Assembly: GCA_016844925.1 (NCBI GenBank)
Contig: JAERTI010000043.1
Span: 133,110-197,109 of the forward strand
DNA: 64,000 nucleotides
Direction of reading: 5' to 3'
DNA from: Candidatus Uhrbacteria bacterium
GTDB lineage: Bacteria > Patescibacteriota > Patescibacteriia > UBA9934 > GWF2-40-263
Under the pieces are notes generated by a model. It did no database searches. It was given only the letters and a program-made list of their open reading frames with translations, and had not been told where the DNA came from. Positions 11,505 to 26,180 of the stretch are shown here, piece after piece. How positions within the stretch are numbered: the stretch's first letter is position 1; every line of letters begins with the position of its first letter. Both the position numbers and the translations under genes were made by a program.

Positions 11505-11779
11505 AGGTTCTCAGTCCCGGTCGCGCCCAGAAGGGCTGGGCGCAGGAGTTCGACTGCACGGGTAAGGGTAACGGTGGCGGCGGCTGTGGAGCTCGGCTTC
11601 TGGTCGAGTACGGGGATCTGTACAAGACGCACAGCTACGACTACGGCGGCGGTCACGACGTCTACATCACGTTCCGGTGCGGCGCCTGCGGCGTCGAGAC
11701 GGACATCAAGTACACCGGTCCCAATCGCAGTGGGATCCGCGACAAGACTCGTTCGAGCGGTGGAGGTTGGCGTGACTGA
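11501..11779 (+). CDS. small Zn-ribbon protein, paralog of the preceding gene
   Basis: DCTGKGNGGGGCGA ... RCGACG; ATGA start/stop overlap. Confidence 0.5.
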   Translation: MKVLSPGRAQKGWAQEFDCTGKGNGGGGCGARLLVEYGDLYKTHSYDYGGGHDVYITFRCGACGVETDIKYTGPNRSGIRDKTRSSGGGWRD

Positions 11780-12191
11780 ACGACTCACGGTTGATGCCGT
11801 TCTCACTGACGGCACGCACATCCTGCTCATTGAGCGCGCGAAGGATCCCTACAAGGGGTGCCTGGCGTTCCCTGGTGGCCGCGTGGACCCTGGAGAGGAT
11901 TTGTTCACGGCCGCTGTGCGTGAGCTTGATGAAGAAGTGGGGCTCGTGCTCGACAAGGCGCTCTTGCTCCCGCTCACGGTGCTCGACATTCCCGGTCGCG
12001 ATCCGCGGCCTGGTCATGTCGCCGCGCATGTCTTCTGGGCGCACGTGGATCGCACGGTGATCGAGTCTGCTCGCGCAGCTTCGGATGCCAAGAGTGTGCA
12101 CATCACACGCCTTAACGAGATCGATCCTGCCGTCATGGCCTTCGATCACTACCTCGCCATCAAGGCTCTTCGCGAGCGCCTCGATGCCTAA
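11772..12191 (+). CDS. NUDIX hydrolase
   Basis: Nudix box GGRVDPGEDLFTAAVRELDEEVGL; GTG start with GGAGG RBS, overlapping the upstream stop. Confidence 0.75.
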   Translation: MTERLTVDAVLTDGTHILLIERAKDPYKGCLAFPGGRVDPGEDLFTAAVRELDEEVGLVLDKALLLPLTVLDIPGRDPRPGHVAAHVFWAHVDRTVIESARAASDAKSVHITRLNEIDPAVMAFDHYLAIKALRERLDA

Positions 12192-12268: not shown

Positions 12269-12805
12269 ATGCTTGCTCGATTGGAACGTGCTCTGGCGGC
12301 CCTGCCGCAGTGGCTCCATGATCCTGATCTTTGGTACAGCATGGACGTGAATTACCACCCCCCGAGGGTGGAGCGTTTGTACCGCAAGTTCGAAGATGGT
12401 CGAATCTTCCTGCACTGCATCTACCCCTGTGGGAGGGATGAGGCTCTCATACATCCGCATCCATGGCCCAGCGCCATGCTGGTGCTGAGTGGCCGCTACC
12501 GGACCATCGTGGGTGCTGGTGCGCAGCGGAAGCGTCCCGTCATGGTCATGGAATCGATGGTGAGCGCCACGCCGGAGGCAGACTATCGCTACACGATGGA
12601 TAACCCTGCGGGCTGGCATTCCGTGATTCCCGAGGGAGGTCCGGTGTACAGCATCATGGTGGCGGGTCCAAGGTGGTCTCGCTGGATTCCGGAGGAGACT
12701 CTCGCAATCGCCGGGCGCCTCACGACGTTGACCCCCAATCGTGTCAGTGAACTTCTCGAGACCGTTGCTGGTCTGTACGCACAACATCAGCGTGCCAACG
12801 CTTGA
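12269..12805 (+). CDS. hypothetical protein
   Basis: ORF with GGAGG RBS; GC-rich. Confidence 0.5.
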   Translation: MLARLERALAALPQWLHDPDLWYSMDVNYHPPRVERLYRKFEDGRIFLHCIYPCGRDEALIHPHPWPSAMLVLSGRYRTIVGAGAQRKRPVMVMESMVSATPEADYRYTMDNPAGWHSVIPEGGPVYSIMVAGPRWSRWIPEETLAIAGRLTTLTPNRVSELLETVAGLYAQHQRANA

Positions 12806-14025: not shown

Positions 14026-14967
14026 TTGCCCATTCAATTCCACATGGAGCCCAAGCGGCGGCCAATGAGCTGGGAGGCGTTCTGCAAGGAAATGCCCCCG
14101 CGTTCCATTGCTGTCGATGGGTTCGTGCACGGTCCGCCGCGCAACGACTACCAGAAGCTCTACTTCAACTTCGACCACCACGACGGTCCGCCGCGCGGGG
14201 CCATGCTCTGCTCTGGCCGTCAGGTGCGCGAGGCCATCCACGACGGTCTGCTGGACCTGCTCATGCCCACCGGCACGGAGGTGGTTCACATCTGGATGAA
14301 CGACTGCGACCCGGATGTGGCCCTGTGCTACTTCTGCCTCATGCAGCCGTGGAGTGTGGAGAACCTGGTGAACCCGGCGCTCAACCGTCTGTTCGGTCAC
14401 ATCGACCTGATGGACAAGCGCAGTGGCCTGGTGGACATGCATCGCGGTATCCCGATCGTCGGGCAAGCCGCCTGGGTGATGCAGCCCTACTGGGAGGCTC
14501 GATTCTCTGGTGCGCTGGATCAGAAGGATCCAGGGCTGCACATGAGCGTTCTTGAGAGCATCCGTGCTCGCATCAACGACTTCAGCGCCGCACGCCCACA
14601 GTCACTCCCCATCGACGAGCGGTACGACTCTCTCCACGAAGGTGCGCGCTGGGCGGTGGTGAGAGAACATGGGCCGCACGCCCGCATGGCCATGGCTAGG
14701 CGCGGTTTGCGCGGCTTCGTCAGCGTGCGCCCGCTCGCCGGTGGCAAGTTCTACTACACGCTCTGCCGCTACAGCGCGAGCATCTACTGGTTCCCACTCC
14801 CTGAGATCGCGGCACACCTGAACAAGGGTGAGCCTGCCGATGGTCAGTTCGGTGGCGGCGACATCGTCATGGGTAACGCCCGCGGCCCCGGCTCCCCGAG
14901 AGGCCCCAAGGAGATCTTCGAGGCCATCAGTGCCTTCCTGGCACAGAAGAACCTCACGCCCCCGTAA
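14026..14967 (+). CDS. hypothetical protein (GC-rich)
   Basis: TTG start 4 nt after AGGGAGG; no recognisable domain. Confidence 0.5.
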   Translation: MPIQFHMEPKRRPMSWEAFCKEMPPRSIAVDGFVHGPPRNDYQKLYFNFDHHDGPPRGAMLCSGRQVREAIHDGLLDLLMPTGTEVVHIWMNDCDPDVALCYFCLMQPWSVENLVNPALNRLFGHIDLMDKRSGLVDMHRGIPIVGQAAWVMQPYWEARFSGALDQKDPGLHMSVLESIRARINDFSAARPQSLPIDERYDSLHEGARWAVVREHGPHARMAMARRGLRGFVSVRPLAGGKFYYTLCRYSASIYWFPLPEIAAHLNKGEPADGQFGGGDIVMGNARGPGSPRGPKEIFEAISAFLAQKNLTPP

Positions 14968-17375: not shown

Positions 17376-17480
17376 CACCTCACACTTACACGAACACGCG
17401 CCTTGAGCGCGTGTTTTTGGTTTTTCTAGGAGACTTCGTGTCACACAAAGCCTCTAAACGCTTGACAAGAATATTATTAA

Positions 17481-17520
17481 GTGTGAGTCTAACACTATCG
17501 TAAGTGTCAAACCAACACTT
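17481..17520. promoter_or_regulatory. two adjacent operator-like palindromes GTGT-N7-ACAC (17481..17495) and AAGTGT-N7-ACACTT (17502..17520) upstream of the phosphatase-kinase operon
   Basis: Read directly; TTGACA at 17462 just upstream. Confidence 0.45.
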
Positions 17521-17565
17521 TCGTACGCCCCTTACAACTTGCACTCACATGTTTGGGAGGAACAC

Positions 17566-18420
17566 ATGTTCCAACTCGCCCATGCCTCCCTTGTGGGGGC
17601 GGATCATCGAAAGGACCTGCACGCCACCAATGGCCAGGACGCCCTGTGCGTCTTGCCACTTCTCGACTCTCCCTTTGGTGCTGGGTACATCGCGCTCGTG
17701 GCTGATGGCTGCGGGTCGGGTAGTCACACCGAGGTTGGGGCCAAGATCGGCGTGCGTTTGCTGGCGCAGGCGCTTGTCACGCACATGGAGAAGCTTCGGC
17801 CTCGCCATGAGGGTGGCCGGCTGAACTTCAAGGACGTGCTCGAACGCGCCCGTCAGGACGTGCTCGCCCGTCTGCGCATTCTCGCGCTGGACCTGGGCGG
17901 CTCTCTGACGGCCACGGTGAACGACTACTTCCTGTTCACCATCGTCGGCGCCATCGTGACCGAGCAGTACAGCTGCTTCTTCTCACGTGGTGACGGCCTG
18001 GTGGTCGTGGGCGGCGAAGAGATCTGGATTGAGCCGGACGAAGGCAACGCGCCTGTGTACCTGGGCTATGCCCTGGTGGACAGCTCGCTCCACAAGCACC
18101 GGCCGGACGCACTGCGTTTCGACATCCAGCGCTGCATGGCCACAGAACGTCTCGATCACTTCCTGGTCGGCACCGACGGCCTAGCTTACCTCAAGAATGC
18201 GGCGCACTTGCCGCTTCCTGGGAAGCAAACCCTCGTCGGTCCGCTCAGCCAATTCTGGAGCCAGGACAAGTACTTCACCAACCCCGACGCCCTCCGCAGG
18301 CGCCTGGCGCTCATCAATCGATCGCCTGTTCGTCCCGATTGGGAAGGACGGCGACTGATCAAGAGCGCAGGACATCTCAAGGATGACGTCGCATTGATCA
18401 TCGGACGGAGGATTCCATGA
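17566..18420 (+). CDS. PP2C-family Ser/Thr protein phosphatase
   Basis: VADGCGSGSHTEVGA metal-binding motif; GGGAGG RBS. Confidence 0.65.
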   Translation: MFQLAHASLVGADHRKDLHATNGQDALCVLPLLDSPFGAGYIALVADGCGSGSHTEVGAKIGVRLLAQALVTHMEKLRPRHEGGRLNFKDVLERARQDVLARLRILALDLGGSLTATVNDYFLFTIVGAIVTEQYSCFFSRGDGLVVVGGEEIWIEPDEGNAPVYLGYALVDSSLHKHRPDALRFDIQRCMATERLDHFLVGTDGLAYLKNAAHLPLPGKQTLVGPLSQFWSQDKYFTNPDALRRRLALINRSPVRPDWEGRRLIKSAGHLKDDVALIIGRRIP

Positions 18421-20348
18421 AAGAACTCATTGTCTCTGGCAAGCGTGTTCGTCTGGATCCATCAAGCATGGTTGGCAAGGGGGGTGAGGCGGATGTGTAC
18501 CGAGTCGGAAAGGACACGGCCCTCAAGGTCTTCAAGAGCCCAAGCCATCCAGACATCAAGGGTCTGCCCAAAGGAGCTGAGCGTGATGCTCTGGCTCGGC
18601 AGGCTCGCGAGCGGATTGCTGAACATCAGCACAAGCTCCCGGCGTTTCCCAAGGGACTTCCCTCGGGGATCATCGCGCCGACGTCGCTCGCACGCGACAA
18701 GAAGGGTCTCATCCGCGGCTACACCATGCCGCTGGTTCCCAACGCGCGTGAGCTCATGGCGGTTCATGGGGACAAGGATCTGCGCAAGCAGATCGCCCCC
18801 GCGGACGTCGTGGCGCTCTTCACTCGTCTGCATGAGCTGGTCGCGGGAGCACACAAGGCCGGCGTCGTCATTGGCGACTTCAACGACCTGAACGTGCTCG
18901 CACGCAAGGTACTTACTCCTGAGGCCAAGCCCTATCTCATCGACGCGGACTCCATGCAGTACGGCGGGTTTCCCTGCCGAATGTTCACGGCACGATTCGT
19001 GGATCCACTGCTGTGTGACCCTTCGCTCAGCTCGCCGATGCTCAGCGCTCCTCATCAGGAAACCTCGGATTGGTTCGCCTTCGCGGCGATGCTCTTTGAG
19101 AGTTTGCTCTGGGTGGGGCCCTTCGGCGGCGTGCACAAGCCCAAGGATCGATCCGCAAAGGTCGGTCACGATGGGCGTTCGCTCGCGCGCATCAGTGTGC
19201 TGCACGACGATGTGCGCTACCCCAAGCCGGCGCGGCCCTACGGCACGCTCCCCGATGACCTGCTGCAGTACTTCCTGCGCGTGTTCGAGGGAGATCATCG
19301 AGAGGTGTTCCCTCGCGCGCTCATTGACGGACTGCGTTGGACCGCGTGCACGGACTGCGGCTACACGCACGCACGGGCCATGTGCCCGATGTGCGGCGTG
19401 GCGGGTCCAGCGATCTCTCAGAAGATCACGGTGCGCGGCACGGTCACGGCACGAAGAATCTTTCCAACGCCTCGGCTGCGTGGAGATATTCTGCAGGTCA
19501 CCCTCCAGGAGGGGGATCTGCACTACCTCGTGCACGATGCGGGCAAGATCAAGCGCGAAGACGGTTCGGTGGTGCTGACACAGCCCCCCGCGCCGGACAT
19601 GCGTTTCCGCCTCAGCGGCCCCAGGACCTTTGTTGGTCAGGGGAGTCGTCTGGTGGTGGTCGATCCTGCGCGTTCGCCCGAGCTGCTCAGCGTGGACACC
19701 CTTGGTCATCGACCCATGTTCGATGCTACACGTCACCACCTCTACCGGGTGGCCGGCGGAAGGCTCGTGCGGGAAGGGGCCCTTGGGGTTAGCTACGACG
19801 AGCACATCGGCGATGTGCTTGCAGGACAGACGATGATCTTCTGCGGAGAGACCTTCGGCCTCGGGTTCTACCGGGCCGGTGCGATCTTCCAGGCGTTCAC
19901 GTTCACCTCCGCCAAGCGGTCGCTCAACGATTCGTTCAACCTGCCGCCCATTCCCGGGCAGTTGGTCGATGCGTTCGCGCTCTTCTCAAGCTCGCGCTGT
20001 TGGTTCTTCACCACCAGTCAGAGCGGCGGAAAGTTGATCAATCGGTGCACCGTCCTCAAGCAGGACGGAACGATCATTGCCACGCACGAGGCCACGGTCG
20101 GAGACGGCAGTTGGCTCTCGAGCATTCGCGGCGGCTGCGCGGCAACCCTTCCGGGTCCCACGCACTGCCTCTTTGTCCCCACGGACGACGGCATCGTCCG
20201 CATTGATGCCACTTCTGGCGGTCTCACTGAGGCACGGGTCTTCACCGACACCGAGCCGTTCGTCCATGCTGGTGCGCGACTGTTCCTGGCGCGTAAGGGC
20301 ATCGTGGTCGTAAAGGATCATGAAATTGTACTTCTGGAAATGAAGTGA
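18417..20348 (+). CDS. Ser/Thr protein kinase-like with about 380-aa C-terminal extension containing a Zn-ribbon
   Basis: Gly-rich loop GKGGEADVY, ALKVF lysine, HKAGVVIGDFNDLNVL catalytic loop; CTDCGY...CPMCG; ATGA overlap with the phosphatase. Confidence 0.65.
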   Translation: MKELIVSGKRVRLDPSSMVGKGGEADVYRVGKDTALKVFKSPSHPDIKGLPKGAERDALARQARERIAEHQHKLPAFPKGLPSGIIAPTSLARDKKGLIRGYTMPLVPNARELMAVHGDKDLRKQIAPADVVALFTRLHELVAGAHKAGVVIGDFNDLNVLARKVLTPEAKPYLIDADSMQYGGFPCRMFTARFVDPLLCDPSLSSPMLSAPHQETSDWFAFAAMLFESLLWVGPFGGVHKPKDRSAKVGHDGRSLARISVLHDDVRYPKPARPYGTLPDDLLQYFLRVFEGDHREVFPRALIDGLRWTACTDCGYTHARAMCPMCGVAGPAISQKITVRGTVTARRIFPTPRLRGDILQVTLQEGDLHYLVHDAGKIKREDGSVVLTQPPAPDMRFRLSGPRTFVGQGSRLVVVDPARSPELLSVDTLGHRPMFDATRHHLYRVAGGRLVREGALGVSYDEHIGDVLAGQTMIFCGETFGLGFYRAGAIFQAFTFTSAKRSLNDSFNLPPIPGQLVDAFALFSSSRCWFFTTSQSGGKLINRCTVLKQDGTIIATHEATVGDGSWLSSIRGGCAATLPGPTHCLFVPTDDGIVRIDATSGGLTEARVFTDTEPFVHAGARLFLARKGIVVVKDHEIVLLEMK

Positions 20349-20536
20349 ATCGAGAACGCTTGAAACTGGATGAGATCTTGGTGCACGACGAGGACCGGAG
20401 CGAAACGTACAGAGATGTACGTTGAGTGAGGACCGAAGGAGTAAGCCAAGAGATCGCCAGTTTCAAGTGTTCGAGTAGGAACCGTGACGCGACGGCACGT
20501 ACCCCGTCGCACCCCACACAGACACTGGAGACTCAC

Positions 20537-21643
20537 ATGTCTACTCTCCCTCTCCCGGGTCACTTCGACCCCAAGCACGCCGAGATCTTCGGCTACCGAC
20601 CGGACCTGGCGCAGGTCGCCATGGACGCCTTCGACTTCAAGAAGCTCCACAGCATCAAGGCTGCCGGGGCCGATGCGGTCAAGATGGCCGTGGTGCCCAT
20701 CGATGCGCAGGAGGACTTCTCCCATCCGGAGGGCACGCTCTTCGTGGCGGGTCGGTCCGGCCGTGGCGCCATCGACGACGCCGTGCGGCTGACCGAGTTC
20801 CTCTACCGGCACATCCACCTGATCACCGGCATCTACCCGACCTTCGACACGCACTTCGCTCTGCAGGTCTTCTCCGCCCCGTTCTGGGTGGGACCCGCGG
20901 GTGAGCCGCTCTCGCCGCACACGCTCATCGTGGCGGACGCCGGCGGCGTGCTGAACAACATCGGCCTGGATGGCACGGTGCTGATCCGCAACGTGAAGCC
21001 GCGGCCCGAGATGGCCTGGTGGCTCTGCGGTGCCAACTACGGTTGGCTGGTGGGGCAGATGCTGCACTACGTCGAGGAGCTGGCGCGCGGTGGCAAGTAC
21101 ACCCTGTACCTGTGGCCGCCGCATACTCTGCTGGGCACGCCCGGCCACGCCATGACCGGCGTGCTCACCGAGGCGCGGATGTTCCACAGCTACGTGCGTG
21201 GCGTCCAGAGTCACGGCGAGATCAAGGGTGGGCACCCGCTGAGCGAGTGCTACAGCGTCTTCGGCGAGGAGGTCCGGACCCGGTTCGACGGGCAGGCCCT
21301 CGCGTCCAAGAACACCCGGTTCATCGACGTGCTGCTCTCCCACGACGTGGTCGTGTTCGCCGGTCAGGCGGCCAGCCACTGCGTGAAGAGCTCCATCGAC
21401 GACTTCCTGACCGAGCTGGCCCTGCGCGATCCCGCGCTCGCCAGCAAGATCTACATCCTCGAGGACTGCATGAGCTCGGTCACGGTGCCCGACGGCGCCG
21501 GTGGCTTCGCCGCGGACTTCACGGATGACGCGCTGGCCGCCCTGGACAAGTTCCGGGACGCGGGCATGCACGTGGTCAAGTCGACCGATCCGCTCGAGAC
21601 GTGGCCGGATCTGCCCTCGGCGCTGGCTCGTCTGGCGGCGTAG
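20537..21643 (+). CDS. isochorismatase-family cysteine hydrolase-like (nicotinamidase-like) with large insertion
   Basis: VVPIDAQEDF and VVFAGQAASHCVKSS matching the D...K...C triad regions. Confidence 0.45.
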   Translation: MSTLPLPGHFDPKHAEIFGYRPDLAQVAMDAFDFKKLHSIKAAGADAVKMAVVPIDAQEDFSHPEGTLFVAGRSGRGAIDDAVRLTEFLYRHIHLITGIYPTFDTHFALQVFSAPFWVGPAGEPLSPHTLIVADAGGVLNNIGLDGTVLIRNVKPRPEMAWWLCGANYGWLVGQMLHYVEELARGGKYTLYLWPPHTLLGTPGHAMTGVLTEARMFHSYVRGVQSHGEIKGGHPLSECYSVFGEEVRTRFDGQALASKNTRFIDVLLSHDVVVFAGQAASHCVKSSIDDFLTELALRDPALASKIYILEDCMSSVTVPDGAGGFAADFTDDALAALDKFRDAGMHVVKSTDPLETWPDLPSALARLAA

Positions 21644-21735
21644 ATTCCCTTCAACAATCAACAGAATGCCGCTCTCAGGGTTTACGAGATTCCTTCGGGA
21701 TGATCGTGGCCCTGGGACCGGCCAGGAGATGAACG

Positions 21736-22530
21736 ATGAGTTCCAAGAGTGCAACCTCCCTTCTCCAGGGCGCAGCGGCCGATGGGCTGCTGGGTGCTGG
21801 TTCCATGATGGCGTTCCAGGTCCCCAACCTGGGCGCGCAGATCCAGGCGGGTCTGGGTATCAGCGTCGACGACGTGGAGGCCTCCGAGGTCTTCCTGCTC
21901 GCGCAGTTGGTGGACGATTCCGGTTCCATCCGGTTCGGCGCGAACGCCCAGGGCATCCGTGACGGCGTGAACCTGGTCTACGAGTCCCTCGAGGATTCCA
22001 AGACCTCCGGTGACGTGCTGACGTCCTGTCGGTACCTCAACGGCACCGTGCTGGACGCCTACACCCCGCTGGCGAGCGCCACGCGCCTGGACACCAAGAA
22101 CTACGATCCCTACGGCGGCACCCCGCTCTACGACGAGTCGGTGGTCACCCTCGGGACTGTGGTCGCCAAGGCCCAGGAGTTCGAGGACGCCGGTGTGCCC
22201 GTTCGCACGGTCACGGTGATCCTCACCGACGGCGCCGACGCGGGCTCGCGCTCGCAGACGCCCGACTCGGTCAAGGCGATCGTGGAGGACATGATCCGCG
22301 CGGAGAACCACCTGGTCTTCTTCGTGGGCGTGGACGACGGTTACACGGACTTCCGTGCGGTCGCTGCCTCCATGGGCATCCCGCCCGAGTTCGTCCTGAC
22401 CCCCGGCAACAGCCCGAGCGAGATCCGCGCTGCCATGCGCGTTGTCTCCCGCTCGGTCGTCCGGGCCAGCCAGGGCGGCACCGGCTTCTCGCAGACCGCC
22501 ACGAGCGGGCTGGGAGGCTTCGGCGGCTGA
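21736..22530 (+). CDS. von Willebrand factor A domain protein (TerY-like)
   Basis: MIDAS DDSGS at LVDDSGSI, plus TPLYDES and LTDGAD motifs. Confidence 0.7.
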   Translation: MSSKSATSLLQGAAADGLLGAGSMMAFQVPNLGAQIQAGLGISVDDVEASEVFLLAQLVDDSGSIRFGANAQGIRDGVNLVYESLEDSKTSGDVLTSCRYLNGTVLDAYTPLASATRLDTKNYDPYGGTPLYDESVVTLGTVVAKAQEFEDAGVPVRTVTVILTDGADAGSRSQTPDSVKAIVEDMIRAENHLVFFVGVDDGYTDFRAVAASMGIPPEFVLTPGNSPSEIRAAMRVVSRSVVRASQGGTGFSQTATSGLGGFGG

Positions 22531-22587
22531 TCGCCAGCGGCAACACAGACACAGAGACGAGTACGTCGTTTCTGTCACGAAAACGTG

Positions 22588-22615
22588 CAGGGTTCTACCG
22601 GAACCCTGCTTTTCC
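22588..22615 (+). terminator. rho-independent terminator closing the island
   Basis: GCAGGGTTC-TACC-GGAACCCTGC-TTTTCC. Confidence 0.7.
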
Positions 22616-22703
22616 CGTTGGTATGTTCTTGACAGCGAATCCATTGCTCACGTACGTTTTCCTTGCTCCTGCAACATGATCGTCCAGATCAACGAGGTGA
22701 ACA

Positions 22704-24530: not shown

Positions 24531-26180
24531 ATGAAGAAGTTACTTTTCGCCCTCATGCTCTTTGTCCCGGCTGTGGTCTTAGCGCAGGTGGGCAGTGCGC
24601 AGACAACGGCGCAGATCCAGTACCCCGTTGAGTGGCTTGGAAACTGTGACAGTGAGCAGCTCTGTCAGGATTACTGCGCGGACGTGACGTTTGTTGATCT
24701 TTGTTACGAAGCAGAGCAGACGTTCGGTGTGAGCTTTTTGACGCAGTCGGCAAGAGAGGCATTTGAGCAGTCACTGGGGATTACGACCACGACTCAGAGC
24801 CCCTACCCGATTCCTATGCTCGACGGCTGTCCTACGCAGCAGGATTGTCAGAACTATTGTTCCAATCCTTCTGAACACATCCTGTGTTACGAGGTTGAGC
24901 TTCAGTATGGGATTGAGTTATTGACCCAGGAGGCTCGAGACATTGTTATTCAAACGGTTACGGGCGGAGCGACGACAACTTCTGCGCAGATCCAGTACCC
25001 CGTTGAGTGGCTTGGAAACTGTGACAGTGAGCAGCTCTGTCAGGATTACTGTGCGGACGTGACGTTCGTTGATCTTTGTTACGAAGCAGAGCAGACGTTC
25101 GGTGTGAGCTTTCTGACGCAGTCGGCAAGAGAGGCGTTTGAGCAGAGTTTGTTAGGCTCGACGGAATCAGAAGAACAAGAACAGGAGCAGGAAGCACAAG
25201 CGACGACAGGCATGAGTCAGATTGACTATCCTATTGAGGAGCTTGGGTTCTGTGACTCTGCGCAGGATTGTCAGAACTATTGTGATGACGCTGCCAACTA
25301 TGAAGATTGTCTCGCCTTTGGGGTTGCAAACGGCATGTATCCCCCTGGACCACAGCAGATGGCAGAAGCTGTGCTTGGAGGTGAGGGACCAGAGGGCTGT
25401 GAAGGATCGACCTGTGCGCAGGTCTGTGACAGTACGACCAATGGTCAGGCTTGTGCCGAGTTTGCCCACGAGAGCGGAGCGATGGATGAGGAAGAGCTCG
25501 AGGCAACTGAGGCTGTACTAGAGCAAGGAGGGCCAGGAGGTTGTGTGACAGAGACTCAGTGCAATACGTACTGTGCAGCGCCAGAGAACGCGCAAGAGTG
25601 TCTCGATTTTGCCGTAGAGCATGGGCTCGTGAGCGAGCAGGAGCGTGAGCGCGTTGAAGCTCTTCAGCAAGGAGGCCCTGGTGGATGTGTAGGAGAGAAA
25701 GAGTGTCACGCGTATTGTTCTCAGGATCAGAACATCAAAGAATGCATGTTGTTCGCTCAGGAGCACGGTCTTATGAGCGAGGAAGATCAGCAGCACGTCC
25801 AAGATCTTCACTTGGAAACACTCAATGGCCCCGGTGGGTGTCAGAGCGATATCGAGTGCTATAACTACTGTTCAGAGCCACAGCATGAACAGGAGTGCCT
25901 GCAATTTGCCTTGGATAATGAGATCGAGGTTGTGACACAGATGTTAACAACAGAGAGCGTTCAGTCTGATGATGCCGACACCCAGACCACAGACGTGAGT
26001 GATGTGATTACCGTGGTTGATCCGGAAACAGGAAAGTCCATGCAGGTTCGTTTGGAGGATTTGCTCGATGAAGATATGGAGCTCTCTGACCATCCTGCAG
26101 GGTGTAGTACTCGAGAGGAGTGTCGGGAGTACTGCGAGTTACCAGAGAACAGAGACGATTGTTTACCTTTTTCAGGTTAG
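24531..26180 (+). CDS. secreted cysteine-rich repeat protein (about 38-aa C-x-C-x-YC modules)
   Basis: Signal peptide; repeated GPGGC...C..YC....EC..FA..HG modules; internal near-identical DNA duplication. Confidence 0.6.
   Translation: MKKLLFALMLFVPAVVLAQVGSAQTTAQIQYPVEWLGNCDSEQLCQDYCADVTFVDLCYEAEQTFGVSFLTQSAREAFEQSLGITTTTQSPYPIPMLDGCPTQQDCQNYCSNPSEHILCYEVELQYGIELLTQEARDIVIQTVTGGATTTSAQIQYPVEWLGNCDSEQLCQDYCADVTFVDLCYEAEQTFGVSFLTQSAREAFEQSLLGSTESEEQEQEQEAQATTGMSQIDYPIEELGFCDSAQDCQNYCDDAANYEDCLAFGVANGMYPPGPQQMAEAVLGGEGPEGCEGSTCAQVCDSTTNGQACAEFAHESGAMDEEELEATEAVLEQGGPGGCVTETQCNTYCAAPENAQECLDFAVEHGLVSEQERERVEALQQGGPGGCVGEKECHAYCSQDQNIKECMLFAQEHGLMSEEDQQHVQDLHLETLNGPGGCQSDIECYNYCSEPQHEQECLQFALDNEIEVVTQMLTTESVQSDDADTQTTDVSDVITVVDPETGKSMQVRLEDLLDEDMELSDHPAGCSTREECREYCELPENRDDCLPFSG
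24611..25143 (+). repeat. intragenic duplication: 24611..24769 and 24985..25143 about 97% identical
   Basis: GCAGATCCAGTACCCCGTTGAGTGGCTTGGAAACTGTGACAGTGAGCAGCTCTGTCAGGATTACTG... repeated 374 bp apart. Confidence 0.8.

Follow-up and report, generated by a model that had tools for sequence, protein, structure and literature searches.

The stretch analyzed here, referred to as the window, comprises 64,000 nucleotides of a Candidatus Uhrbacteria genome (GenBank assembly GCA_016844925.1, contig JAERTI010000043.1, positions 133,110 to 197,109), and it carries a cassette of four plus-strand open reading frames (ORFs), genes A to D, which together span positions 17566-22530. Gene A (17566-18420, +) encodes a PphC-like PP2C-family Ser/Thr phosphatase of 284 aa; gene B (18417-20348, +) encodes a YegI-like eukaryotic-type Ser/Thr kinase that continues into a Zn ribbon and a seven-bladed beta-propeller; gene C (20537-21643, +) encodes a predicted long-form nicotinamidase of 368 aa (PncA-like, isochorismatase superfamily); and gene D (21736-22530, +) encodes a von Willebrand factor A (vWA) protein of 264 aa with a complete metal ion-dependent adhesion site (MIDAS) and a Ser-Gln-rich C-terminal tail. 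The ATG of gene A lies nine bases 3' of GGGAGG, in a frame that is open from 17539, and the start of gene C was set at 20537 because its homologues begin at MSTLPLP, though the frame is open from 20426. A preliminary description of the locus, made from the letters alone, had noted that the stop of A and the start of B overlap in an ATGA, as they do, and had called all four genes tightly coupled; such coupling is found at A-B, but B and C are 188 bp apart and C and D 92 bp apart, with a GGAG-type ribosome-binding site in each spacer.

The same description had named the four protein families and noted the intact MIDAS and the Zn ribbon, and these calls were borne out by Pfam PP2C_2 for A, a YegI profile for B, a PncA profile for C, and an AlphaFold2 (AF2) model searched with Foldseek for D. 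The Pfam check that it had proposed succeeded in part: PP2C is matched directly by A, but Pkinase, Isochorismatase, and VWA are not matched directly by B, C, and D. Searches of the four window proteins against Pfam, NCBIfam, PADLOC, and PDB sequences gave only the PP2C match and a weak match to a LanL kinase, so that direct sequence searches were insufficient and family profiles and structure models were needed to identify B, C, and D. For the phosphatase, the PP2C_2 match is clear (E = 1.7e-12), E. coli PphC is found by BLASTP (E = 2e-5), and the metal-binding Asp residues D25, D47, D143, D204, and D273/274 are conserved in 77 sequences.

Gene B has no Pkinase match in Pfam, and its sole NCBIfam match, to the LanL kinase region, is weak (E = 1.7e-9). 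Its family profile aligns with E. coli YegI (hhalign 98.3%, E = 1e-14) over both the kinase domain and the CPxC Zn ribbon, and the protein has what defines a Hanks-type kinase, namely, a bilobal fold, a Gly-loop, the beta3 Lys, the catalytic-loop Asp and Asn, and a metal-binding Asp equivalent to that of DFG. Invariant in the family are the Gly-loop GKGGEAD, K37/K40, GDFNDLN, DADS, and Thr191 of the activation segment. The kinase domain occupies residues 1-305 and is followed by a CxxC..CPxC Zn ribbon at residues 311-326, with invariant cysteines C311, C314, C323, and C326, and by the beta-propeller at residues 337-643. The 380-aa C-terminal region of the kinase had been described as carrying a Zn ribbon, which it does, but it holds the propeller as well; this propeller is confined to the present kinase family and always lies at residues ~325-640 in its 555 representative clusters.

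The gene C protein itself falls below the detection level of the isochorismatase model PF00857 and has no match in Pfam, whereas 23 of 30 relatives do match PF00857. Its family profile aligns with E. coli PncA (hhalign 96.2%, E = 2e-9), and the protein weakly matches the PDB nicotinamidases 3r2j (Leishmania) and 3pl1 (M. tuberculosis). The catalytic triad D56, K230, and C282 and the metal site D104-x-H106 ... H196 (WPPH) are conserved without exception in 30 sequences; E. coli PncA can be aligned over the regions of the Lys and the Cys, and the WPPHC segment aligns with both 3r2j and PncA. We therefore predict, from sequence, that gene C encodes a nicotinamidase. It shares with the PncA/Pnc1 enzymes (E. 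coli PncA, 3pl1, and 3r2j) the Asp-Lys-Cys triad and the D-x-H...H site including WPxH, but it is ~150 aa longer, owing to an N-terminal segment and a large insertion, and this long form (~360 aa), which Pfam barely recognizes, occurs almost only within the cassette. Some cassette nicotinamidases have an additional N-terminal domain of ~240 aa without a Pfam match (locus L088, 9885-11663, and the proteins P0012 and P0054), and this extension accounts for the apparent B-C gaps of 650-780 bp in several loci.

No match to Pfam or PDB sequences was found for gene D. Its AF2 model (pLDDT 90) has a vWA fold that Foldseek matches to the I domains of CMG2, TEM8, and integrins (E = 1e-7, probability 1.0), and the MIDAS residues (DxSxS..T..D; D60/D61, S62, S64, T129, and D165) are all invariant. 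The C-terminal tail is strikingly conserved and Ser-Gln rich (FSQSAVRASQG..FSQTA.GGFG). The model and the invariant site point to a genuine MIDAS-bearing vWA protein, for which placement in the TerY clade would be tentative.

Conservation was assessed with 400 kinase relatives from GTDB, one genome per species, of which the best 80 loci were analyzed. The order A-B-C-D is kept, on the same strand, in 66 of the 80 loci, as the neighborhood check that had been proposed at the outset was meant to establish, and most of the other 14 end at contig edges. The 80 loci come from Patescibacteria, Cyanobacteria, Myxococcota, Gammaproteobacteria, Acidobacteriota, Planctomycetota, Gemmatimonadota, and one Aenigmatarchaeote, and cultured cyanobacteria with the cassette include Nodosilinea nodulosa PCC 7104, Pseudanabaena minima, and Leptolyngbya spp. 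In the reciprocal test, metagenomes were searched with the long-form nicotinamidase as the starting point, and a contig was counted only if the partner gene could have fitted on it; this test found the kinase in 34 of 35 cases, the vWA gene in 52 of 55, and the PP2C gene in 24 of 26. The homologue lists of B, C, and D recurrently fall on the same contigs, the three families are alike in size (1361, 1656, and 1815 hits), and protein identities of 45-60% across phyla indicate slow evolution. The four genes are thus genetically inseparable across phyla, and the reciprocal counts make the nicotinamidase, which had at first been taken for a noncanonical insertion, an obligate core member of the cassette.

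The genomic site is equally stable among the nearest relatives. The junctions of ribE-ribH-A-B-C-D-AI-2E, the last gene being on the minus strand, are the same in three independent assemblies (relatives at 84% kinase identity), and in a relative at 75% kinase identity the cassette also follows riboflavin genes, on a 7-kb contig that differs downstream. This shared syntenic site rules out an assembly chimera, which the preliminary description had allowed for, and indicates long residence in the lineage. The cassette is also present on about ten IMG/VR contigs classed as viral (L088-L103, 42-545 kb), one of which (L091) has the order vWA-PP2C-x-kinase-nicotinamidase amid HNH-endonuclease-like and small unknown genes. 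A phage-borne origin was considered and not accepted, as these contigs are mostly host-like and the evidence is insufficient.

What surrounds the cassette was examined by clustering all ORFs of the 80 loci and annotating the representatives with Pfam. An nrtR gene (Pfam NUDIX plus NrtR_WHD) lies immediately 5' of A in 54 of the 80 loci, and the genes found downstream or elsewhere nearby include PncB (20 loci), a fusion of nicotinamide mononucleotide (NMN)/nicotinate mononucleotide (NaMN) adenylyltransferase with NAD kinase (NMNAT-NAD kinase; 16), Nudix proteins (8), Prs (7), and NadE (6). In cyanobacteria, A and B are separated by an inserted ADP-ribosylglycohydrolase gene (ARH; PF03747), with ARH present in 9 of the 80 loci, and an IMG/VR locus (L102) has NadE and PncB genes between A and B.

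The DNA 5' of gene A agrees with this context. Two perfect AGTGT-N7-ACACT palindromes, at 17480-17496 and 17503-17519, lie 23 bp apart and are conserved in close relatives; they had been noticed before as palindromic operators, and their GT-N7-AC core marks them as putative NrtR-type sites. Published NrtR sites are 21-bp palindromes with a GT-N7-AC core, tandem sites are functional, and ADP-ribose is the anti-repressor of NrtR (Rodionov et al. 2008, PMC2330246). An exact GTGT-N7-ACAC was found from -300 to +30 of the PP2C start in 58 of 76 loci, with at least two copies in 37, and the modal spacing of tandem sites in related loci is 22-26 bp. The density of such sites is 3.9/kb 5' of PP2C against 0.033/kb elsewhere, a 117-fold excess, and 20 of the 37 remaining matches sit upstream of nrtR. 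Together, the NrtR, PncB, NMNAT-NAD kinase, Nudix, Prs, and NadE neighbors and the NrtR-type operators identify the setting as NAD-salvage regulation and not as a defense island. A link to NAD had in fact been guessed in the preliminary description, and the nicotinamidase and its NrtR/NAD-salvage neighbors support that guess.

Upstream of the operators, a -35-like hexamer, TTGACA (17462-17467, +), is invariant in the close relatives L082 and L084; a sigma-70 scan found no complete promoter and no convincing -10. A Nudix ORF (11778-12191) lies ~5 kb 5' of the cassette within a GC-rich patch; it has no winged-helix domain and was on that ground rejected as NrtR, its best match being the ADP-ribose-pyrophosphatase half of NadM (NCBIfam, E = 4e-19). 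Inside the 3' end of this ORF, at 12094-12108, there is a third exact GTGT-N7-ACAC, 160 bp 5' of a 178-aa ORF (12269-12805), which may be a second target of the NrtR regulon or a chance match (0.65 sites are expected per window). The cyanobacterial loci with an ARH insert are L049, L052, L054, L060, L061, L067, L069, L071, L073, and L081 (8824-9916), the last with an additional 86-aa ORF between PP2C and kinase genes, and Uma2-family nuclease genes are scattered in or beside cyanobacterial cassettes.

The cassette is bounded on both sides by hairpins. At its 5' boundary, the intrinsic terminator of the upstream ribH-like gene (17392-17416, +; a 10-bp stem followed by a T-run, from the terminator scan) is conserved in relatives, and at its 3' boundary there is a GC-rich, terminator-like hairpin with a stem of 9 bp (22587-22609), after which comes TTTT (22587-22613, +), as the preliminary description had reported. 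The scan lists the 3' hairpin on the minus strand; its plus-strand tail reads TTTTCCCGTT. With respect to composition, that description had placed a GC-rich island in AT-rich DNA. The island is real, as the cassette has 63.9% GC against 53.8% in the rest of the window, and GC at third codon positions (GC3) is 0.74-0.92 in the cassette genes against 0.52-0.62 in ribE, ribH, the AI-2E gene, and the VanW gene; the flanks, at 47-54% GC, are lower than the cassette but not AT-rich. The window as a whole (1-64000) is a GC mosaic in which blocks of 60-66% GC, at ~11-16 kb, 17.5-22.6 kb, 29-35 kb, and 57-59 kb, lie within DNA of 47-54% GC, and GC3 above 0.8 also occurs outside the cassette, in an rseP-like gene and an ORF at 14026-14967. 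This mosaic suggests repeated acquisition from GC-rich donors. Long antisense ORFs of 447 aa (18462-19805, -) and 478 aa (20318-21754, -) run across the cassette, and in two public assemblies of relatives the nicotinamidase region has been called on the wrong strand (L082, 11911-13023).

The B-C spacer holds a long imperfect hairpin of ~125 nt (20349-20476, +), with inverted-repeat arms at 20354-20369 and 20457-20472; the RNA of the spacer has a minimum free energy of -80 kcal/mol (z = -7.2). Close relatives lack the hairpin and have B-C spacers of only 60-70 bp, for which reason it is taken as a lineage-specific insertion. No second copy in the window, no Rfam match, and no phage match were found for it, and it could be a MITE/REP-like element or a signal for mRNA processing or stability. 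A riboswitch in the spacer was considered and rejected, as nothing was found in Rfam and the hairpin is not conserved. A small hairpin just 5' of the ribosome-binding site of the nicotinamidase gene (GCGACGG-N8-CCGTCGC, 20492-20513) is kept in L082, L084, and L087, unlike the spacer around it, and may be a regulatory or processing element before gene C. Elsewhere in the window, positions 24531-26180 encode a 549-aa secreted, Cys-rich, acidic protein of repeated Cx..C..YC modules, in which a segment of ~56 aa, QIQYPVEWLGNCDSEQLCQDYCADVTFVDLCYEAEQTFGVSFLTQSAREAFEQSL, is duplicated exactly.

The preliminary description had matched the cassette to TerY-P, which is defined as a TerY-like vWA protein, a PP2C phosphatase, and a Ser/Thr kinase with a C-terminal zinc ribbon and has been hypothesized to be a metal-sensing phospho-switch (PMC11090510). 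This match holds for A and B, which are homologous to PphC and YegI, but the gene order differs and the vWA protein is only marginally YegL-like. The cassette shares with YegL-PphC-YegI and TerY-P the logic of three parts, namely, a PP2C_2 phosphatase, a MIDAS-vWA protein, and a kinase of divergent Hanks type with a Zn ribbon behind it; neither the cassette kinase nor YegI matches Pfam Pkinase. The parts had been called biochemically uncharacterized, which is not so for all of them, since YegI is an active eukaryotic-type Ser/Thr kinase and PphC a PP2C phosphatase in vitro (bioRxiv 10.1101/819920 and 10.1101/303594). An ATGA overlap like that of A and B joins pphC and yegI in some strains, and the in vivo substrates of YegI are not known (bioRxiv 10.1101/819920). 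The E. coli order is yegL-pphC-(yegJ)-yegI; the cassette is arranged PP2C-kinase-nicotinamidase-vWA instead of vWA-PP2C-kinase, although the E. coli order is that of one locus and not a published definition. Further, the cassette has the nicotinamidase as a fixed fourth member, its kinase ends in a soluble seven-bladed propeller where YegI has a membrane-spanning region, and its vWA protein is too divergent for Pfam VWA. The two also differ in context, TerY-P occurring with Ter, restriction, or CoCoNuT genes; among the neighbors in the 80 loci we found NrtR and NAD salvage and no association with Ter, DNA-processing, restriction, or defense genes. PADLOC gave no match for the cassette, and it gave no TerY-P match for the E. 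coli YegI/PphC/YegL control either, for which reason its negative result was dropped as evidence against TerY-P. Based on these comparisons, A, B, and D appear to be distant relatives of the TerY-P/YegL-PphC-YegI triad.

Three other kinds of system bear comparison. TerY-P-like modules with an OB-fold-fused kinase act against phages according to Gao 2020, as cited in PMC11090510; as far as that citation describes them, they share vWA, PP2C, and kinase with the cassette, but their kinase ends in an OB fold where that of the cassette has a Zn ribbon and a propeller, and no nicotinamidase, NrtR, or NAD context is part of the account. The predicted ARG-centric systems under NrtR/WYL regulation, which include vWA "chaperones" (Iyer et al. 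2022, PMC9503650, section 3.8), have in common with the cassette a vWA protein, a Nudix-helix-turn-helix (NrtR-like) repressor that is presumed to be an ADP-ribose sensor, and occasionally an ADP-ribosylglycohydrolase; they are centered on ARG, rhodanese-type phosphatases, and nuclease effectors, and the Ser/Thr kinase, PP2C, and nicotinamidase, invariant in the cassette, are missing from them. Known NrtR regulons comprise pncA, pncB, nadD, nadE, prs, and the unknown genes nrtX and nrtY, with no kinase, PP2C, or vWA gene (PMC2330246). Clusters such as nrtR-pncA-pncB and pncB-nadD-nrtR-nadE share with cassette loci the NrtR gene, the GT-N7-AC core, the tandem operators, and pncA-type, pncB, nadD-like, nadE, prs, and Nudix genes, whereas the kinase, PP2C, vWA, and long-form nicotinamidase genes are peculiar to the cassette. 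In full-text searches of the literature we found no description that joins a nicotinamidase/PncA or NrtR with PP2C, kinase, and vWA, though the 2012 TerY-P paper of Anantharaman, Iyer, and Aravind may mention one. What is new, then, is a TerY-P-type phospho-switch genetically joined to NrtR-controlled nicotinamide salvage, in a module that is real, widespread, and unannotated.

Nicotinamidase opens the Preiss-Handler salvage of nicotinamide, and the products of NAD+ glycohydrolysis are nicotinamide and ADP-ribose. We lean toward the view that the cassette is a module for nicotinamide salvage under NrtR control, in which a TerY-P-type phospho-switch gates the enzyme, and we infer the part of this mechanism that goes beyond membership in the regulon. 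Under this model, cleavage of NAD+ in stress or by ADP-ribosyltransferases, sirtuins, or NADases, including cleavage during phage attack, would raise ADP-ribose, which would release NrtR from both operators and allow the operon to be transcribed. The nicotinamidase would then convert nicotinamide to nicotinate, feeding resynthesis by PncB, NadD, and NadE, and the removal of nicotinamide would also relieve the inhibition of NAD-consuming enzymes. The kinase would take up a signal through its own beta-propeller, and kinase and phosphatase together would set the phosphorylation of the vWA protein, most plausibly in its SQ-rich C-terminal tail, or of the nicotinamidase. In MIDAS-vWA domains a divalent cation mediates the binding of an acidic ligand residue, and MIDAS-dependent binding by the vWA protein might toggle the activity, assembly, or metallation of the nicotinamidase. 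The net effect would be that a TerY-P-type phospho-switch gates nicotinamide salvage posttranslationally at its first step. A direct action of the switch on the nicotinamidase, exerted via the vWA protein, is a tentative proposal, one that we would at present rather doubt than assert.

Several observations weigh against this model. A coupling of the nicotinamidase to the kinase, the phosphatase, or the vWA protein is so far a prediction from sequence, and the profile match of the vWA protein to YegL is marginal (hhalign only 19.5%). No nrtR gene was found in the window or on the contigs of close relatives, so that NrtR control of this particular cassette is read from its operators, and the window has no pncB, nadD, nadE, prs, or other NAD genes. 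Since the palindromes are perfect and conserved, they argue for a regulator encoded elsewhere in the genome and not for a loss of control. The Spirulina-type cyanobacterial loci L029, L036, L053, and L065 keep A-B without C-D nearby, from which it follows that A-B may have targets besides C and D. Finally, the GC content of the cassette exceeds that of its flanks in 50 of 59 loci, by 3.9 points on average, and the cassette is patchily distributed, as mobile and defense genes often are; the GC excess is compatible with horizontal spread. Among the Spirulina-type loci, operator-like palindromes occur 5' of PP2C in L029, L036, and L065, and L053 has two single-mismatch sites; a fifth locus, L030, is cut upstream, so that only B is visible, again with C-D not nearby. 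A conserved divergent gene of ~300 aa lies upstream in L029, L036, and L065.

The preliminary description had favored an undescribed signaling or defense system, and the cassette could indeed be a stand-alone TerY-P-like antiphage system in which infection is detected by the triad and answered by the nicotinamidase as effector, for example, by removing nicotinamide and so starving the NadV-type NAD+ reconstitution of phages or by rewiring NAD pools. The homology of A and B to the TerY-P-type PphC/YegI pair is what one would expect of such a system, as are the defense role reported for TerY-P-like modules (Gao 2020, as cited in PMC11090510), the GC-rich island signature and patchy phyletic spread, the presence of the cassette on some ten large IMG/VR contigs, of which one has flanks that are HNH-rich and phage-like, and the standing of NAD and ADP-ribose as a known axis of phage-host conflict (PMC9503650). 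The conserved neighbors, however, are NAD-salvage genes and NrtR and not defense genes, identities of 45-60% across phyla point to slower evolution than is typical of defense genes, and relatives keep a stable syntenic site between riboflavin and transporter genes; the absence of a PADLOC match adds little, given that the E. coli triad control was negative as well. We therefore regard defense as a minority alternative, and an unlikely one, in a context of NAD-salvage regulation. A counter-ADP-ribosylation system of the ARG-centric kind, with the vWA protein binding modified proteins and the nicotinamidase clearing a by-product, would account for the combination of an NrtR-type regulator with a vWA protein, which is shared with those systems (PMC9503650, section 3.8), and for the ADP-ribosylglycohydrolase between A and B in cyanobacteria. 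Yet ARH is present in only 9 of the 80 loci and absent from the window, and the published systems have no kinase, PP2C, or nicotinamidase (PMC9503650), which leaves this explanation decidedly improbable.

It is also conceivable, if not at all probable, that the genes are co-regulated without being mechanistically coupled, gene C being a plain salvage nicotinamidase and the triad, simply carried along in the NrtR regulon, having other targets, such as NAD-consuming enzymes or general stress proteins. The Spirulina-type loci, with A-B and operators but C-D not nearby, could be taken in this sense, as could the restriction of translational coupling to A-B and the fact that the in vivo substrates of YegI are not known. 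Against such independence, the long-form nicotinamidase is nearly always accompanied by the kinase (34/35) and the vWA gene (52/55), the order B-C-D, with C between members of the triad, is kept across phyla, and the family sizes are similar (1361, 1656, and 1815 hits). The abrupt shift in GC and the long antisense ORFs across the block could, in turn, have meant an assembly chimera or chance open frames in GC-rich DNA; but with identical junctions in at least three independent assemblies, thousands of homologues with conserved catalytic residues, and confident structure models, an artefact is extremely improbable, and the chimera in particular is rejected on the basis of those junctions and the order conserved in 66 of 80 loci.

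The transcriptional control of NAD+ homeostasis in bacteria is established (NadR, NiaR, and NrtR), and we know of no description of a salvage enzyme controlled by Ser/Thr phosphorylation. The cassette suggests that bacterial NAD+ salvage is also under phosphorylation control. We hold it possible, though we stop short of calling it probable, that there is a posttranslational layer of NAD+-salvage control in bacteria, including the candidate phyla radiation (CPR)/Patescibacteria, and in some archaea, in which a phospho-switch gates a dedicated nicotinamidase under ADP-ribose and NrtR. TerY-P triads are widespread, and their substrates and outputs are obscure; here, such a triad is tied to one easily assayed enzyme in a regulon with a known inducer, ADP-ribose, and the function of the switch thereby becomes testable. 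The vWA and kinase families, with ~1,400-1,800 clusters each, carry "hypothetical" labels in databases. If the proposed model is true, the switch would be an NAD+-depletion alarm and recovery module, possibly one that protects cells when phages, toxins, or their own abortive-infection NADases deplete NAD, and the cassette would bear on the conflict between phages and hosts over NAD+. Patescibacteria with small genomes are expected to depend on NAD salvage, and the retention of the cassette in small-genome Patescibacteria metagenome-assembled genomes suggests that it is important there.

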